Both the position numbers and the translations under genes were made by a program. This document shows, one piece after another, positions 288-5,599 of a stretch of DNA of 39,512 bases; positions within the stretch are counted from its first letter, which is position 1; each line of letters opens with the position of its first letter. The notes beneath the pieces are model-generated. The model made no database searches. It was not told the DNA's origin and saw only the letters and a program-made list of their open reading frames with translations. This stretch comes from Planctomycetota bacterium (lineage in GTDB: Bacteria; Planctomycetota; Phycisphaerae; FEN-1346). The stretch is taken from the NCBI GenBank assembly GCA_016782785.1, contig JADHXV010000003.1, positions 1-39,512 on the forward strand. The letters are read 5' to 3'.

Positions 288-983
288 ATGACCCAGAAGA
301 CGACCGTGATTCTGGTCGGCGTCCTGCTTCCGCTCGTTGCGCTGGCGGCGCTCGCCGGCTGCTTCGAAACCGAACCGAGTTCCGATTCCGCCCAGGAAGG
401 CGCCGCCGCGCGCGGAGGCGCCGCGAAGGCCCCCGACGCTTCGGAGCCTGCGGACGTGCCCGCTTCCCCTGAACTCGCCAAGGAGAAAGAGGCCGCCATG
501 CCCGAACCGCTGCCCCAGGTCACCCTCCATACCAACAAGGGCGCCATCTGCCTGGAACTGGCCGAGGACGACGGCCCGAACACCGTGGCCAACTTCATCC
601 ACCTGGCCGAGAAGGGGTACTACGACGGCCTGGCGTTCCACCGGGTCATCCCGGACTTCATGGTCCAGGGCGGGTGCCCGGAAGGCACCGGCCGCGGCGG
701 GCCCGGGTACGTCATCCGCGACGAGTTCAGCCCGAACCTGCGGCACACGCGCGGCGTCATCTCGATGGCCAACGCCGGTCCGAACACCGGCGGCAGCCAG
801 TTCTTCATTACCCACGTGCCGACCCCGTGGCTGGATGGCAAGCACGCGATCTTCGGCAAGGTGATCTCCGGCATGGAGGTGGTTGACGCCATCCAGGTGG
901 GCGACAAGATCACCCGCGTGACGGTGGACCGGAAGCGCGACCACGTCTACAAGGCGGAAACCCTGGGTTCGCGGGGGCGCTGA
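288..983 (+). CDS. Cyclophilin-type peptidyl-prolyl cis-trans isomerase with lipoprotein signal
   Basis: Motifs [40 protein letters not shown] and [13 protein letters not shown]-terminal hydrophobic stretch with lipobox LAGC. Start moved to ATG 288 on the basis of the RBS. Confidence 0.93.
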
Positions 984-1137
984 ACCGGCCGCCCGGACTG
1001 AAGGTGTCGGTGGGCACGGGCGTCTCGTCAGGCAGGGTTGGCCGGAAGTTCCCGGTACGCCCGCGGCCCCGTCTTGTTAAAGGCCGAGAGGCGGCCGCCG
1101 GGGTCGCCGGACGGCCGACCCCCCCTGAGACCGCGAC

Positions 1138-1215
1138 ATGTTTATTTACCTCGGCAACGTGCTGCTGATTGCCGCAGCCTCGGCCGTGCTGATCCCCGCA
1201 CCCACAACGTACTAG
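1138..1215 (+). CDS. Putative 25-aa hydrophobic small protein (MFIYLGNVLLIAAASAVLIPAPTTY)
   Basis: ATG...TAG ending 10 nt before the next ATG. Mostly G/C-ending codons and one TM-length hydrophobic run. RBS is weak. Confidence 0.4.
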   Translation: MFIYLGNVLLIAAASAVLIPAPTTY

Positions 1216-1225
1216 GCAAAGGGCC

Positions 1226-2671
1226 ATGGGGCGAACCGGTCTCGTGCTTGCATCGGCCTGCCTGGCGTTTGCCGCTTCGGCGACGGCGCGGGCGGAGCGG
1301 CCCGACGCTGACCTCCTGCGCCAGACCGTCGCGCCCGCGGTCTGCACCGTGACGGTCGAGAACACCTGGGGCATGCCGGTCGCGATCGCGAACGGATTCC
1401 TGCTGGGTGACGGGCGGTTCGTTGTCTCGGACCTCGGCGCGGTGGCCCAGCCGGGCGTCGAGAGCGTGATCGTCCGGTTCGAGGACGGGCGGCCGTACCT
1501 GGCCCGGCAGTTCGGCCTGGCCGACGTCTCGCTCGGCCTGGTGGCGCTGGAGGTCCTGGCCGACCGGGGCGGCAAGAGCGGCCTGCCGCTGGCCGGCACG
1601 CTGCCCGACCTCGACGGCCTGACGGCGGTGGGGATGGTCGGCTGGGAGTACGCCAAGGACCTGGGCGTGGCGACGGGCCGGCTGTGGCAGGGGCCGTCGG
1701 CCGACGACGTGGCCAGCCGGGCCCGCATCCAGCCGCCCGCCGGCCTCGACGCCTTTTTGCGCATCGCGGGCGGCGACCTCCAGGCCGCCGGCGGCGCGCC
1801 CGTCGTCGACGCCAACGGCACCGTCCTGGCCGTCCACCTTCCCATCGCGGCCGCGGGCATCCAGGTGCCGCTGGCCGTGCCGGCGTACTCGCTTCGGCGG
1901 TCGCTCTTGTCGGCGGAGCCGAAACTCGCGATGCTGACGAAGTTGCCGAGGCCCGTCTGGCCGGTCGAGACGGTTCGCCTGGCGGGCGAACCGCCCAAGC
2001 CCGCCGGCTTCCAGGACGCCCGCCAACGCATCCGCGACGCCATGGTGTGCGGTCAGTGCCGCGGCCGAGGCAGGGTTCGTGCCGAGTTCGACGGCGGGGC
2101 GATTCGCACCTACGAAGAGAGCATCGAGTGCCCCCGCTGTCACGGCGAGGGCATCGCCCTGGAGAGCGGCGTGTACGAACTCCTGACCACCTGGGCCGAG
2201 GAGGGCACCCGGGCCGTCTGGGTTCCCGGGCCGGTTGGGGCCGTCCAGACGGCCGCCCGCGGCGCCGGACGCGATATGCTCCGCTACCTGGCGTCCCTCG
2301 ACCGGAACTTCCGGGCCGAGTTCGCCCAACGCGCCGGCCGCGACGTCAGCCAGTTGGGCACGCCGGCGCCGCGCGGCCTCATCGTCTACGCCGAGGTCCG
2401 CGAGACCATCGCCGGCCCGGACGGCGAGTATGTCATCCTGGACCCCGTCGATACGGACTGCGTGGTGGCGGTCCGGCTCCAGGACCTCATGGGTAAGGAC
2501 GGGCGGGGTCCCACCGGCCTGGGCCGGCGGCCGCCCGACCGGGCCTGGATCATCCTGGCGGGCACGGTTCTGTCGCGCCTTAAGGCGCCTGGCCACGTGG
2601 GCGTCTGCGTGCTTCCCTTCGAGTGGACCGGTTGCCCCACCCCCGGACCGGTGCCGCGTCCCAAGCGCTGA
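1226..2671 (+). CDS. Secreted trypsin/HtrA-like pseudoprotease with DnaJ-type zinc ribbon and unknown C-terminal domain (paralog 1)
   Basis: Signal peptide (ATARA). Trypsin_2-like spacing: PAVCTV, NGFLLGDGRFVVSD, VRFEDGRPY, GGAPVVDANGTVLAV. CGQCRGRG and CPRCHGEG motifs. Confidence 0.75.
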   Translation: MGRTGLVLASACLAFAASATARAERPDADLLRQTVAPAVCTVTVENTWGMPVAIANGFLLGDGRFVVSDLGAVAQPGVESVIVRFEDGRPYLARQFGLADVSLGLVALEVLADRGGKSGLPLAGTLPDLDGLTAVGMVGWEYAKDLGVATGRLWQGPSADDVASRARIQPPAGLDAFLRIAGGDLQAAGGAPVVDANGTVLAVHLPIAAAGIQVPLAVPAYSLRRSLLSAEPKLAMLTKLPRPVWPVETVRLAGEPPKPAGFQDARQRIRDAMVCGQCRGRGRVRAEFDGGAIRTYEESIECPRCHGEGIALESGVYELLTTWAEEGTRAVWVPGPVGAVQTAARGAGRDMLRYLASLDRNFRAEFAQRAGRDVSQLGTPAPRGLIVYAEVRETIAGPDGEYVILDPVDTDCVVAVRLQDLMGKDGRGPTGLGRRPPDRAWIILAGTVLSRLKAPGHVGVCVLPFEWTGCPTPGPVPRPKR

Positions 2672-2773
2672 GGTTTCCTTGGGCGCCGCGCACCCGGTTC
2701 ATGTGAAACCGGGCGACTTGGCCGGCATTGATAAAGAGGGAAGGCGGCCGATGGCGCTGGGTGGTATGGCGGC

Positions 2774-2807
2774 GGGTGGCATGGTCATCCCCCTCAGGGG
2801 GTGACCA
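2774..2807 (+). repeat. REP-like family C unit (GGGTGGCAY foot plus hairpin)
   Basis: GGGTGGCA followed by hairpin TGGTCATCCCC-CTCA-GGGGGTGACCA. Confidence 0.55.
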
Positions 2808-2821
2808 GGTGCGCCCCGGCG

Positions 2822-2837
2822 CGGCATGGAGCATGCA
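2822..2837 (+). promoter_or_regulatory. Candidate sigma54 -24/-12 promoter
   Basis: CGGCATGGAGCATGCA has GG-N10-GC spacing and resembles TGGCACG-N4-TTGCW, about 60 nt upstream of ATG 2900. Confidence 0.3.
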
Positions 2838-2899
2838 ATAAGCCGGCCCGCCGGCCGTTTAATCCAGTACACGGGTCCATCGCGACGGGGAGGCGATCC

Positions 2900-4441
2900 A
2901 TGCATAAACCAACGATGCTTGGCTTGGCGGTTGTGGGCGCGGTCTTGGCGTCCGGCAGTATGGCAGCCGAGAAGCCCGAGGTCGAGGCCCTTCAGACGTC
3001 CATCGGCCCGGCCGTCTGCACCGTGTCGGTTGAGAACGCCTGGAGCGTGTCTCAGGCCGTGGCCAGCGGCTGGCTGCTCGGCGACGGCAAGTTCGCCATC
3101 ACCGACCTGGGGGCCCTGAAGCATCGCGGGGCGGCCAAGGTGACGTTGCGGTTTGCCGACGGCACCTCGGCCACGGCCACGCAGTTCGGCATGGCCGACC
3201 CGTCGCTGGGGCTGGTGGCGCTTCGGCTCGAGGGGTCGGCCGGGACGCGCAAAGGCCTGGGCCTGGCGTCGGAGCCGCCGAACACGGCGTCGCCCCTCCT
3301 GGTGGCCACGACGGGCTTTGCGTGGGGCGACCAGTTGACCGTCAAGAACGGCCGGCTGATGCGCGGGCCGCGCATTGCGGATGTGGCAACCCGATCCGGC
3401 ACCCAGACGCCCGCGGGCGTCGATGCGTTTCTGAAGATCGAAGGCGACCGGCTGTCGGCCGCCAGCGGCGCCCCCGTGACCGACGCCGGTGGCACCGTGC
3501 TGGCGGTCCGCCTGGACGTGGCGGCCAAGGGGATGACGTCGGTGCTGGCGATGCCCGCCTCGACGCTGCGCGAAACGCTCCTGGCCTCCGGGGCGCAACT
3601 GAAACCCCTCACGGACCTGCCCGAGACGCTCTGGCCGGTCAAGATCCTCCGCCTGCCAGGCGAGCCCGTCACGCAGGAGGCGTTTCTGCGCGCCAGCCAG
3701 ACGTTGAACAAGGCCCTCGTCTGCGACCGTTGCCGCGGGGCCGGTGAGATCGACGGTGCATGGGCCTTCGGCCGAGACGTCACATGCCCGGCGTGCGCGG
3801 GCACCGGCGTCCACCTCGATACTGAGAATCTTGATATGCTCAAGGAATGGTCCCTGGAAGGGGCCCGCGTTGCGTGGGCGCCCGACGTCGACATCCGCAC
3901 GCGGTCGCAGGTCCGCAAGATCGGCGTTGAGGTTGTGGCCCACCTGGCGGTCGTCGGGCGGAGCATGCGGAACTCGTGGGGGCTGCTGGGGCTGCTGGCG
4001 CGACTGAACCAGGTCCGGGCCGAGCCCGGCAAGCCGCAGGGTATCATCCTGTACGCCCAGGTCAAGGAGCAGGTGGCCGGCCCCGACGGCGAGTACCTGC
4101 TTCTGGAGTCCTTCAACACGGGGACGACCGCCGCCGTCCGCGTCGAAGACCTGCTCGGTTGCGACGGCATGGGACCGCTGCCCGGTCGGCAAGTCCCCAA
4201 GAAGGACACTTGGTTCGCCCTGGCCGGCGCCGTCATCTCGCCCTTCAATTCGGGCAAGGCCAGCGGCGTCTACGTGCTTCCGTTCGAGTGGGCGCCGTAC
4301 GTCCCGTCGCTGGACCGGGGTGAGGGCGAGGGCGATCGCCGGCCCGAGTGGGACAGGGGCCGCTGGGGCGACCACGGGCCGGGCGACCGCGGCGGCGGGC
4401 CGGGCGGCCGCGGCGGCGGGCCGGGTGGCGGGGGCCGCTGA
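2900..4441 (+). CDS. Secreted trypsin/HtrA-like pseudoprotease with DnaJ-type zinc ribbon (paralog 2), Gly/Arg-rich tail
   Basis: GGAGG RBS before ATG 2900 and a signal peptide. Colinear with 1226-2671 (PAVCTVxVENxW, QFGxADxSLGLVAL, AGPDGEY, VLPFEW). CDRCRGAG and CPACAGTG motifs. Confidence 0.78.
   Translation: MHKPTMLGLAVVGAVLASGSMAAEKPEVEALQTSIGPAVCTVSVENAWSVSQAVASGWLLGDGKFAITDLGALKHRGAAKVTLRFADGTSATATQFGMADPSLGLVALRLEGSAGTRKGLGLASEPPNTASPLLVATTGFAWGDQLTVKNGRLMRGPRIADVATRSGTQTPAGVDAFLKIEGDRLSAASGAPVTDAGGTVLAVRLDVAAKGMTSVLAMPASTLRETLLASGAQLKPLTDLPETLWPVKILRLPGEPVTQEAFLRASQTLNKALVCDRCRGAGEIDGAWAFGRDVTCPACAGTGVHLDTENLDMLKEWSLEGARVAWAPDVDIRTRSQVRKIGVEVVAHLAVVGRSMRNSWGLLGLLARLNQVRAEPGKPQGIILYAQVKEQVAGPDGEYLLLESFNTGTTAAVRVEDLLGCDGMGPLPGRQVPKKDTWFALAGAVISPFNSGKASGVYVLPFEWAPYVPSLDRGEGEGDRRPEWDRGRWGDHGPGDRGGGPGGRGGGPGGGGR
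4376..4438 (+). repeat. About 3 x 21-bp coding tandem repeat (GPGDRGG/GPGGRGG/GPGGGGR)
   Basis: The unit GGGCCGGGCG(A/G)CCGCGGCGGC is repeated at the 3' end of paralog 2; the third copy is degenerate. Confidence 0.7.
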
Positions 4442-4503
4442 GCCGGCGGGGTCTTGCCAATTCCATTGCAGCGCATCGGGCCCGGGCTAGGCCGGGCCGA
4501 CAG

Positions 4504-4531
4504 TTGTTCCCTCCCTCCGCTCTGCTATAAT
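4504..4531 (+). promoter_or_regulatory. Sigma70-type promoter of the PIN/TRAM-ispD operon
   Basis: TTGTTC-16 nt-TATAAT with extended TG (TGCTATAAT). GGAGG RBS precedes ATG 4586. Confidence 0.65.
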
Positions 4532-4585
4532 AGCCCCGTATCATGATGGCCCGTTTTCATCGGCCCTGGGCGGGAGGGTATTATC

Positions 4586-5599
4586 ATGCTCGTGTTCATT
4601 GTGCGGCTGCTGTTCTTCCTGGCGATGGTGGCGGCGGGGTACGTGTTCGGCGACGCCGTCGGCGACGGGAAACAACTGACCTCGATGCTGGGGTTCGGCG
4701 TGGCCGCGGTGGTGGTTATCGTCGTGGACCTGGCGTTCCGCCGCAAGAACATCAGCGTGGTCTCGGCGGTGTTCTTCGGCCTGCTGGTGGGGTTGGTGGT
4801 GGCGATGCTGCTCGGCCCCGTGGTCGACATGTATCAATGGATCGACGTCGAGGTCCGCCAGGCCCTGAAGGTGGGGATCGCCGCCGTCACGTCGTACCTG
4901 GCAATCTCGATCATCCTTCAGACCAAGGACGATTTCCGTTTCATCATCCCGTACATCGAGTTCGCGAAGCAGCGAAAGGGCGGCCGGCCGCTGCTGCTCG
5001 ACACGAGCGTGATCATCGACGGCCGCATCGCCGATATCGCCGAGACCCGCTTCATCGATTCGCCGATCATCGTGCCGCGCTTCATCCTGCACGAACTCCA
5101 GAGCATCGCCGATTCGTCCGAGAAGATGCGGCGCGACCGAGGCCGGCGCGGGCTCGACATCCTTAACCGCCTCCAGACCACGCCCCACGTCGACATCCGC
5201 ATCCAGGACACCCGCCCCGAGGCCCCCGCCGGTGAAAGCCCCGACCAGAGTCTCGTGAACCTGGCGGCCCATTTGAACGGCCGCGTCGTCACCGTCGACT
5301 ACAATCTGAATAAGGTCGCCCAGTTGGCCCGCGTCGACGTGCTTAACGTCAACGACCTGGCGAACGCGCTGAAGTCCACCGTCATTCCCGGCGAGGAACT
5401 TGAAGTGACCGTTCTCAAGCCCGGTCAGGAGGAAGGCCAGGGCGTCGGGTACCTCGACGACGGGACGATGGTTGTGGTGGAGGACGGCCAGAAGCAGATC
5501 GGCCAGGTCGTCTCGATTAGCGTGACGAACGTGCTCCAGAAGAGCGCCGGCCGCATCATCTTCGGGCGCATCGGAGGCAGGCCGCGGCGGCGCTCGTGA
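4586..5599 (+). CDS. yacL: PIN/TRAM domain membrane protein (YacL family)
   Basis: N-terminal TM helices; LLDTSVIIDGRI, RGRRGLDIL, DYNLNKVA and GQGVGYLDDGTMVVVE motifs. Lies upstream of ispD, the usual context for this family. Confidence 0.92.
   Translation: MLVFIVRLLFFLAMVAAGYVFGDAVGDGKQLTSMLGFGVAAVVVIVVDLAFRRKNISVVSAVFFGLLVGLVVAMLLGPVVDMYQWIDVEVRQALKVGIAAVTSYLAISIILQTKDDFRFIIPYIEFAKQRKGGRPLLLDTSVIIDGRIADIAETRFIDSPIIVPRFILHELQSIADSSEKMRRDRGRRGLDILNRLQTTPHVDIRIQDTRPEAPAGESPDQSLVNLAAHLNGRVVTVDYNLNKVAQLARVDVLNVNDLANALKSTVIPGEELEVTVLKPGQEEGQGVGYLDDGTMVVVEDGQKQIGQVVSISVTNVLQKSAGRIIFGRIGGRPRRRS

Follow-up and report, generated by a model that had tools for sequence, protein, structure and literature searches.

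Introduction

A few HtrA-derived pseudoenzymes have been described in bacteria, namely MamO, PflC, and the sensor domain of RsgI9. MamO is described as a pseudoprotease with a degenerate triad, a residue other than glycine at position 193, and non-catalytic roles; it binds metal through a surface di-histidine motif and promotes MamE, whose processing requires MamO to be present, though not its triad (extracts of PMC4794232). PflC, from the Campylobacter flagellar motor, is presented as a periplasmic, triad-less HtrA homolog that serves as a block of the lattice or motor disk (extracts of PMC12222027). The S1C domain of RsgI9 from Clostridium thermocellum is described as protease-like and cellulose-binding (extracts of PMC12203970). 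Here we analyze two tandem genes, W1 and W2, in a 39,512-nucleotide stretch of DNA from an uncultured Planctomycetota bacterium (assembly GCA_016782785.1, contig JADHXV010000003.1, positions 1 to 39,512; the whole stretch is called the window). The window is chromosomal and has 70% G+C. Each gene encodes a putatively exported protein in which a dead HtrA-fold domain is followed by a predicted zinc ribbon, three helices, and an OB-like barrel. We are highly confident that the two proteins belong to a dead HtrA-derived family with this architecture.

Dead HtrA paralogs as such are already known; this protease/ribbon/barrel architecture is a new version. Because this architecture also has live-triad cousins, the point at which activity was lost can be mapped by phylogeny. 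The family is therefore a clean natural experiment on why a protease fold is kept once cutting stops, and it gives a handle on an unnamed C-terminal module. The organisms are uncultured, which limits practical impact until in vitro study. A literature search surfaced no paper on such protease/zinc-ribbon proteins, as judged from listings, which leaves their absence from print unproven.

Two Tandem Genes Encode HtrA-Fold Proteins with a Disabled Active Site

W1 (1226..2671) encodes 481 amino acids and W2 (2900..4441) encodes 513, with a W1-like architecture plus a Gly/Arg-rich tail. Both genes, like all window features given below, are on the forward strand. The second open reading frame (ORF) spans 2801-4441 and has a possible GTG start at 2801; the W2 start is read as the ATG at 2900 because a GGGGAGG box lies 6 nt upstream and the signal peptide begins there. 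The proteins are 42% identical over 459 amino acids (E value 6e-116), and similarity at the DNA level is highest in the helical/OB-like module (4033-4121 versus 2368-2456, 71%). The W1 signal peptide (1226..1294, residues 1-23, with the boundary between ATARA and ERP) was assigned by eye; in the AlphaFold2 model, residues 4-17 of this peptide form a lone helix with a low predicted local distance difference test score (pLDDT). The signal sequences of W1 and W2 both end at an Ala-x-Ala-type site, and hydrophobic N-terminal stretches were found across the family. From these N-terminal signal peptides, both proteins are predicted to be Sec-exported. No N-terminal anti-sigma domain or transmembrane helix was found; a 23-residue signal peptide alone precedes the protease-fold domain.

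The dead protease domain spans residues 27-235 in both proteins (1304..1930 in W1 and 2978..3604 in W2). A family profile built from 32 members was used to search PDB sequences and as input for AlphaFold2. The best PDB match was the protease domain of HtrA2 (E value 5.4e-5), and this alignment placed the catalytic His on G71, the Asp on G104, and the Ser on residue 189 (Gly in W1, Ser in W2). The W1 codons lie at 1436..1438 (G71, where tdLgav is aligned on TNAHVV), 1535..1537 (G104), and 1790..1792 (G189, where the oxyanion-loop motif GNSGGP has become AAGGAP); those of W2 lie at 3110-3112 (G71), 3209-3211 (G104), and 3464-3466 (S189). The corresponding stretches read SDLGAV (68-73), ADVSLGLVAL (99-108), and AAGGAP (187-192) in W1 and TDLGAL, ADPSLGLVAL, and AASGAP in W2.

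The W1 model is compact, with a mean pLDDT of 89.1 and a predicted template modeling score (pTM) of 0.87. When residues 27-235 of the model were compared with HtrA1, DegS, DegP, MarP, and RsgI9-S1C by VIA-align, Z scores of 21-22.5 were obtained; superpositions on HtrA-type structures, Deg1 among them, gave root-mean-square deviations (rmsd) of 2.2-2.8 Å over 180-195 residues. Foldseek against the PDB returned RsgI9 S1C-NTF2, MarP, DegS, DegP, and HtrA1 at E values of 4e-13 to 3e-11. The top Foldseek match was RsgI9 S1C-NTF2 (7sjy, E value 3.7e-13), and 7sjy_B superposed with a Z score of 22.3 and an rmsd of 2.6 Å over 193 residues. The structural neighbors of an independent ESM Atlas model of W2 (pTM 0.72) are trypsin-family clusters. 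With the AlphaFold2 superpositions, the Foldseek matches, and the W2 model all in agreement, the chymotrypsin/HtrA fold is confirmed at the level of predicted structures, well outside what chance would give. Sequence libraries respond more faintly to the same domain. Pfam Trypsin_2 (PF13365) scored 21.0 bits on W2 (E value 6.2e-4), under the gathering cut-off of 27.6, and 21.4 bits on W3, a third paralog described below; the Pfam scan gave no Trypsin_2 match to W1. At E values up to 1, the scan contained no PDZ family in W1 or W2.

Across the family, the position of the catalytic His is occupied by a small residue, Gly (52), Ala (31), or Ser (4), in the 87 sequences aligned there, and never by His. 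The Asp position is Gly in 86 of 86 and never Asp. The Ser position is variable (84 aligned: S 46, T 15, A 8, G 7, P 3, N 2, and V, F, and D once each). At the oxyanion-loop equivalent of Gly193, W1 and W2 have Ala, and most members have some residue other than Gly. No His, Ser, or Lys is invariant along the 32-member profile; D69 and D100, close to the former active site, are at least 90% conserved. Judged from these alignments, W1 cannot use the classical catalytic mechanism, and the family is very unlikely to do so: base, acid, and oxyanion-loop glycine have all been lost, the nucleophile is dispensable, and no other His, Lys, or Ser is invariant.

An earlier note made from the DNA letters had proposed tandem secreted paralogs with Gly in place of the triad His and Asp, a third catalytic position that is Gly in the first protein and Ser in the second, a chymotrypsin fold, and no PDZ domains. 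Every motif it quoted is present in the translations, as are the signal peptides, and its manual alignment was reproduced by the profile match to HtrA2. The fold was borne out by structure prediction and Foldseek, and neither a PDZ domain nor an alternative intact catalytic set emerged.

The Family Derives from Live Proteases with the Same Architecture

A word-indexed search found 32 homologs with 37-90% identity, all of them unnamed or "hypothetical." An exhaustive profile search of 1.84 billion representatives returned 275 proteins at E values of 1e-3 or lower, 67 of them at 1e-30 or lower. We define the family as the 106 sequences that score at least 100 bits against the profile among the 182 aligned, excluding two live-triad proteins that lie just above this threshold. 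No Pfam or NCBIfam family spans the whole protein, in keeping with the earlier statement that the architecture is not that of a named family. In a sample of 201 genomes from the class, strong matches (1-6 per genome) were present in 21 of 21 other genomes of the window's taxonomic family; 11 genomes outside it gave weak partial matches only (best E values 4e-9 to 7e-4). All genomes that carry the family are from uncultured organisms. Some metagenome-assembled genome records (L083, L085, L087, L088, and others) are titled "uncultured Anaerolineales bacterium," an apparent labeling error.

The weaker tier of the search contained proteins of equal length and plan in which TNxHV, DLAxL, and GNSGGP are intact; these are rarer than the dead family. 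Eight same-architecture relatives pass Pfam Trypsin_2 (E values 1e-18 to 1e-27), and the triad is intact in six of the eight and degenerate in P0136 and P0149. Among 29 weaker-tier sequences with the four ribbon cysteines, 16 align His-Asp-Ser and 4 more do so by eye, across an aligner gap; the rest are 4 fragments without the protease part and 5 sequences that are otherwise degenerate. When the dead family was compared by hhalign with 20 live same-architecture proteins (profile A2), the probability was 99.95 and the E value 3.5e-38 over 426 columns, which begin in the protease domain and extend through the whole barrel. The live-triad proteins (for example, the metagenomic P0104, P0110, P0128, and P0140) are thus full-length homologs of the dead family. 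They are labeled at most "S1-C subfamily serine protease," and none has been characterized.

A tree was built from 80 rows, including 14 live outgroups, by a quick search under LG+G4 with outgroup rooting. The dead family forms a single clade against the live outgroups, with a Shimodaira-Hasegawa-like approximate likelihood ratio test (SH-aLRT) value of 100. Within it, the W1-type, W2-type, inner-array-type, and W3-type proteins are each well supported. On this tree the Asp position is constant, and the His position switches seven times within the set G, A, and S. At the Ser position there are 20 or more changes, of which 12 exchange Ser and a different residue. We regard it as strongly supported by this reconstruction that His and Asp disappeared in a single loss that preceded the duplications, since the loss is shared by all paralog clades and the proteins are homologous end to end to live-triad proteins, and that the Ser position has drifted since. 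Descent of the dead family from live proteases of the same architecture likewise has strong support from the alignments, as does duplication into at least four paralog types within one uncultured Phycisphaerae family.

These results agree with the proposal that the His and Asp losses predate the duplication. The earlier coupling of architecture and pseudoprotease state stands in part: the proteins are dead throughout the family, and the architecture is not peculiar to pseudoproteases, as live-triad proteins share it end to end. The third paralog, the live-triad relatives, and the finding that the Ser of W2 is not conserved in the family go beyond what had been noted.

The same plan occurs with differently degenerate sites in other Phycisphaerae families (L035, L036, and L038-L040). 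The motifs there include TNFLAL (His to Leu), GNIGGP or ATVHGP (Ser lost), and NLAV (Asp to Asn); in L038-L040, His is replaced by Leu and Ser by Ile or Val. Together with P0119, P0127, P0136, and P0149, these relatives have degenerated independently of the dead family, and the triad appears to have been lost several times in this architecture. A survey of the phylum with the live-type profile A2 was uninformative, as the generic protease domain matched 300 of 301 genomes. Exported CxxCxGxG proteins recur in Planctomycetota. W1, W2, and W3 gave no match to PADLOC defense systems.

A Predicted Zinc Ribbon and an OB-like Barrel Follow the Protease Domain

A conserved linker, LPxPxWPV…LRLxGEP, joins the protease domain to a pair of CxxCxGxG motifs. 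In W1, the predicted zinc ribbon covers residues 275-309 (2048..2152), with CGQCRGRG at 275-282 and CPRCHGEG at 302-309; in W2, it covers residues 275-303 (3722..3808), with CDRCRGAG and CPACAGTG. The four cysteines are present in 83 of 83 sequences that cover both motifs, and both full CxxCxGxG motifs, already recognized in the earlier note, are invariant in the family. The ribbon would bind zinc at a single Cys4 site, as against two in DnaJ, because the CxxCxGxG repeats number two.

Library matches to the ribbon are all sub-threshold. In Pfam, DnaJ_CXXCXGXG and Anti-TRAP appeared at E values of 3e-4 and 7e-4; the DnaJ cysteine-rich domain (PF00684) scored 21.4 and 16.4 bits against a cut-off of 32.7, anti-TRAP (PF15777) scored 19.9 and 24.4 bits against 32, and NF058604 scored 21.9 against 65. 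The family profile found DnaJ (1exk, E value 0.055) and anti-TRAP (2bx9, E value 0.12) only weakly among PDB sequences. No J domain was detected in the Pfam scan at E values up to 1, and TIGR02349 scored 17.6 bits against 377.

The C-terminal module of W1 (2171..2632) comprises three helices (residues 316-375) and a five-stranded OB-like barrel (residues 383-469). By homology to W1, the corresponding module of W2 covers about residues 310-466 (3827..4297). Both proteins contain the motifs IVYAEV/ILYAQV...AGPDGEY, ...LAG.V..., and VLPFEW in this region. When the last 170 residues of W1 were modeled alone, the pLDDT was 90.8 and the model showed three helices followed by five long strands. A VIA search of 48,161 PDB representatives with this model listed 50 matches, nearly all of them OB folds. 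The scores are weak to middling (Z scores of 5.1-7.0, none of 8 or more). The best were aspartyl-tRNA synthetase (AspRS, 1asy_A, Z score 7.0, 112 amino acids, 4.1 Å), Ten1 (6.6), YgiW (6.3), and RPA (6.2); others include the anticodon-binding domain of asparaginyl-tRNA synthetase (AsnRS) and RMI. YgiW is periplasmic. With Foldseek, the N-terminal OB domains of lysyl-tRNA synthetase (LysRS) and AspRS were best, at E values of 1.6e-3 and weaker, and nothing reached 1e-3. An OB-like barrel is the best available reading of these models, held with moderate confidence, and it agrees with the earlier suggestion that the C-terminal domain is possibly OB-like, the OB fold being the one fold to emerge, weakly, from the searches.

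An NTF2-like fold had first been suspected from the RsgI9 match. It gave way to the OB-like reading when the domain-only search listed OB folds instead; no NTF2 entry was among the 50 structural matches listed, an absence that does not in itself rule the fold out. The C-terminal 170 residues have no PDB sequence relative (the best match, an antibody at E value 0.048, is taken as noise) and no Pfam match, and the ESM Atlas held nothing usable for this part of W1. A search with residues 262-481 found no protein longer than 842 amino acids and just two short fragments. One metagenomic protein (P0164, 466 amino acids) is membrane-anchored and has the zinc ribbon, helices, and barrel but no protease domain, which shows that the C-terminal module can occur independently. 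W2 continues beyond the barrel into a Gly/Arg-rich low-complexity tail (4307..4438) that is common to W2-type orthologs.

The Genes Are Intact and under Selection

Contigs from two studies cover positions 1000-4600 with zero differences, although both of these exact matches are flagged as possible origins of the window's DNA, and a roughly 90% identical relative differs by compensated indels only. Ratios of nonsynonymous to synonymous substitution (dN/dS), calculated by the Nei-Gojobori method from profile-aligned codons, were 0.22-0.48 in 10 of 12 ortholog pairs; restricted to the dead protease domain, the range was 0.17-0.54. The strong G+C bias at third codon positions (G+C3) may inflate these values. 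Maintenance of the genes under purifying selection is strongly supported by these codon comparisons. The pairs of inner-array copies, considered again in the Discussion, may be under relaxed or diversifying selection. In the inner copies at L015:8247-11697 and L016:6520-9737, which belong to arrays of three to four genes, dN/dS is highest in the ribbon/helix part.

Paralogs, Neighboring Genes, and Other HtrA Genes

The source genome is 75% complete. It carries a third paralog, W3, on the reverse strand of another contig (G000:C203:4413-5840, equal to L003:1405-2979). W3 has 524 amino acids, is 38% identical to W1, and has A, G, and T at the triad positions. W3-type genes are flanked by a 5-formyltetrahydrofolate (5-FTHF) cyclo-ligase gene on one side and an Amidase_2 gene on the other in five of five single-copy genomes and in the source genome. 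Because this neighborhood is fixed in single-copy genomes, the W3 type appears to be ancestral, and the array beside the cyclophilin appears to have expanded later. The W3-type proteins have a Pro/basic-rich linker and then an invariant …FFG[LIV]-COOH tail; a regular-expression search found FFG[LIV] tails in 17 of 71 full-length sequences, plus W3 and four of five W3-type loci.

Upstream of W1 lies a gene for a cyclophilin-type peptidyl-prolyl isomerase (288..983; Pro_isomerase E value 2.4e-48) with a lipoprotein-type signal (…LAALAGC). At related loci the order is cyclophilin lipoprotein, one to four paralogs, PIN/TRAM, IspD, a PMT_2 glycosyltransferase, and a family 2 glycosyltransferase (GT2). 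Among 20 fetched loci, PIN/TRAM was present in 11 and the cyclophilin in 8; the others are W3-type or lack those neighbors. The cyclophilin is a conserved array neighbor, which does not imply partnership. The neighbors of seven more distant same-architecture genes included no common partner.

A possible hetero-oligomer of W1 and W2 had been proposed. One genome (G031) has a contiguous locus with a W1-type gene and two inner copies and no W2-type gene, and another (G084) has a locus with a single W2-clade gene only, which argues against an obligate pair; by this distribution, an obligate W1-W2 hetero-oligomer is unlikely. The proposal is further weakened by the promoter-like element that W2-type genes have of their own. 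In G063, the profile match to the W2-type copy (L032:3463-5374) is split into three parts that lie on different ORFs, and the exact upstream element is missing; either the gene is broken or the assembly is wrong there.

Six HtrA-type genes in the source genome have TNxHV and GNSGGP/GSSGGP motifs and PDZ domains. Adjacent pairs of PDZ-type HtrA genes occur at G000:C139 (L046, L048) and G000:C220 (L047, L049). In each pair, one gene keeps TNFHV/GNSGGP and its neighbor is without both, a live-plus-dead arrangement.

A Promoter-like Element Precedes W2-Type Genes

A promoter-like element, TGCAAT-N16-CGTT, lies at 2834..2859, 40 nt before the W2 start, and resembles promoters of extracytoplasmic function (ECF) sigma factors. 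The form TG[CA]AAT-N16-CGTT is present in seven of seven aligned W2-type upstream regions. It matches once in the window, against 0.09 expected, and in 13 of 49 loci, from 9 genomes, every time upstream of a W2-type gene. Three matches occur genome-wide, against none for the reversed control. The other two precede a GspE/PilB-type ATPase gene and a TetR gene and may be unrelated. Counts of the pattern in five relatives are 4-7 per genome (controls, 0-2), and most of these occurrences precede genes for signal-peptide proteins or lipoproteins. ECF promoters typically have "AAC" at -35 and "CGT" at -10 (extracts of PMC3426412), and the genome has 16 Sigma70_r2 matches, many of them ECF-sized. We treat the ECF-promoter resemblance as a lead from sequence patterns rather than a demonstration. 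No motif conserved across genera was found in W1-type or W3-type upstream regions.

At the TetR site (G000:C173:17065-17090, in L050) and in L064, L068, and L079, four genomes in all, the direct repeat TGAAATnGGCGTT occurs twice, 17-22 nt before a TetR-family gene. This repeat is probably the operator of the TetR regulator, matching the W2 pattern by chance.

The W1-W2 spacer also contains a repeated palindromic element of ~35-40 nt (2770..2811; …GGTCATCCCCC-GCA-GGGGGTGACC…). It has 19 sites in the genome (with up to 3 mismatches), its stem changes are compensatory between copies, and it is accompanied by a depth spike in the metagenome contig and by short matching contigs. It looks like a family of hairpins of the repetitive extragenic palindromic (REP) or terminator type. 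A terminator in the spacer at 2672-2760 was considered and rejected, as the fold is no better than that of shuffled sequences (z -0.10). No sigma-70-like promoter came out of a consensus scan, and its single terminator-like site falls within W1; Rfam had no match within 900-4700.

Discussion

Catalysis is gone, yet fold, ribbon, and barrel are conserved together under selection, and for this reason a non-cutting binder is the simplest reading. Taken as a whole, the best explanation is an exported, dead HtrA-derived family whose members act as non-cutting binders in the cell envelope, and we put its chance of being right at about half. Protease-dead HtrA proteins hold extended client segments. 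By analogy, W1 and W2 would act without cutting, as binders in the periplasm or cell envelope, with the disabled cleft holding an extended segment of a client. The zinc ribbon and the OB-like barrel may take over from PDZ domains as the second binding or assembly surface, and the paralogs would be variants that differ in clients or regulation. The promoter-like element of W2-type genes, with its ECF resemblance, would fit a setting of envelope stress. The narrower proposal, that these are non-proteolytic client-binding proteins (holdases or adaptors), is a plausible one by this analogy and falls a little short of an even chance. A fuller version is a long shot. It envisages ATP-independent client handling in the envelope, where the cleft, the one-zinc knuckle, and the barrel would capture unfolded or C-terminal segments and the ancestral W3-type member, with its FFGL tail as an inbuilt PDZ ligand, would dock on and activate live HtrA proteases; W1, W2, and the inner-array proteins would be adaptors for particular clients, regulated by stress, and an ECF-type promoter would drive W2.

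Several points weigh against non-cutting binding of envelope clients. The role of the cleft in client binding is drawn by analogy, and peptides might also dock less well once the oxyanion-loop glycines are replaced. Sugars or nucleic acids are frequent ligands of OB-like barrels. The S1C domain of RsgI9, which among solved bi-domain structures is the nearest relative by Foldseek, is said to bind cellulose, not peptides (extracts of PMC12203970). On these two grounds, the ligand may be non-protein. A dN/dS of 0.2-0.5 is relaxed for a bacterial gene, and two inner-array pairs, from two close genomes, gave 0.73 and 1.04, at dS of 0.042 or less and with few changes. The cyclophilin neighborhood is confined to one taxonomic family and may reflect inherited gene order, not a functional link. 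As to envelope stress, the -35 part of the W2 element reads AAT, not the "AAC" of ECF promoters; no ECF sigma gene was found behind any match to the element, and a stricter matrix built from nine W2 sites matches the W2 site alone in this genome.

An alternative that we consider unlikely, and the strongest of those weighed here, is that the dead proteins are partners or regulators of a live HtrA, docking on PDZ-bearing HtrA proteins and activating them or delivering clients. The genome offers candidates in its six PDZ-bearing HtrA genes with intact motifs. No live protease gene adjoins the arrays in the examined loci. PDZ domains bind hydrophobic-x-hydrophobic C-termini, and the invariant …FFG[LIV]-COOH tail of the W3-type paralogs presumably resembles such a ligand. 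W1 and W2 lack this tail. The analogy is with MamO, which is reported to promote MamE-dependent proteolysis without needing its own triad (extracts of PMC4794232).

The proteins might instead be envelope ligand sensors or scaffolds, with the S1C domain and barrel binding a polysaccharide or wall component or polymerizing into a lattice; on the available analogies this is improbable. RsgI9 S1C-NTF2 is the top Foldseek match and ties for the top by VIA, but its likeness is no higher than that of ordinary HtrA proteins (Z differences below 1 are ties), and the family has neither a membrane anchor nor an anti-sigma domain. A lattice has a precedent in the periplasmic one of PflC (extracts of PMC12222027). 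The W3-type genes adjoin the gene of an Amidase_2 peptidoglycan hydrolase in all five single-copy genomes and in this one, and PMT_2 and GT2 glycosyltransferase genes follow the array; gene neighborhood is, however, weak evidence.

Less probable still is a thiol-disulfide oxidoreductase, in which the two CxxC pairs would be redox-active in the oxidizing periplasm instead of forming a zinc site. The four cysteines are invariant, and PSA2, a thylakoid-lumen protein with a DnaJ-like zinc finger, is proposed to act via protein-disulfide isomerase activity (extracts of PMC4806229), which supplies the analogy. Conservation covers the full CxxCxGxG motif, glycines included, as in the zinc-binding DnaJ and anti-TRAP, and redox activity would leave the retention of the dead protease and the barrel unexplained; it could, however, coexist with envelope binding.

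That the proteins are still enzymes, with another catalytic set on the same fold, is barely credible: Ser is retained in 46 of 84 members including W2 and the well-conserved D69 and D100 lie near the old site, but W1 has Gly at a Ser position with 20 or more changes on the tree, another residue stands in for the oxyanion-loop glycine, and no His, Lys, or Ser is invariant.

Comparison with Known Systems

Among DnaJ-type proteins, the ribbon resembles the cysteine-rich domain of DnaJ, anti-TRAP, and plastid DnaJ-like zinc-finger proteins in its CxxCxGxG motifs with conserved glycines. Unlike DnaJ, which has four repeats and two zinc sites, W1 and W2 have two repeats and no J domain, and they are putatively exported multi-domain proteins. 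Anti-TRAP is a stand-alone zinc ribbon of ~53 amino acids, whereas the motif here is embedded in proteins of 481-513 amino acids.

W1 and W2 share the N-terminal fold of HtrA, DegP, DegS, and DegQ (MEROPS S1C) and, by prediction, their export. The HtrA motifs have changed from TNxHV to TDLGAV, from DxAxL to GLVAL, and from GNSGGP to AASGAP. Unlike HtrA, the family lacks the His and the Asp, varies at the Ser, and has no PDZ domain; a ribbon, three helices, and an OB-like barrel take its place.

With MamO, as described in the extracts cited above, the family shares a retained dead HtrA fold and a residue other than Gly at the equivalent of position 193. It differs in having no invariant His and a different C-terminal module. 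The NCBIfam MamO model (NF040961) gave no match to W1 or W2 at E values up to 0.01, and the live relatives match it weakly. PflC, in the extracts cited, keeps two PDZ-like domains and has a part in the flagellum, whereas the family has no PDZ domain and no flagellar genes in its context. In the RsgI9 ectodomain, too, an S1C-fold domain outside the cytoplasm precedes a small alpha+beta domain. RsgI9 is, however, a membrane anti-sigma factor with an NTF2-like second domain, and the W1 module matches OB folds, if weakly. To these three cases the family adds a different one: every copy is dead, and in place of the PDZ domains there are a ribbon and an OB-like barrel named in no domain library.

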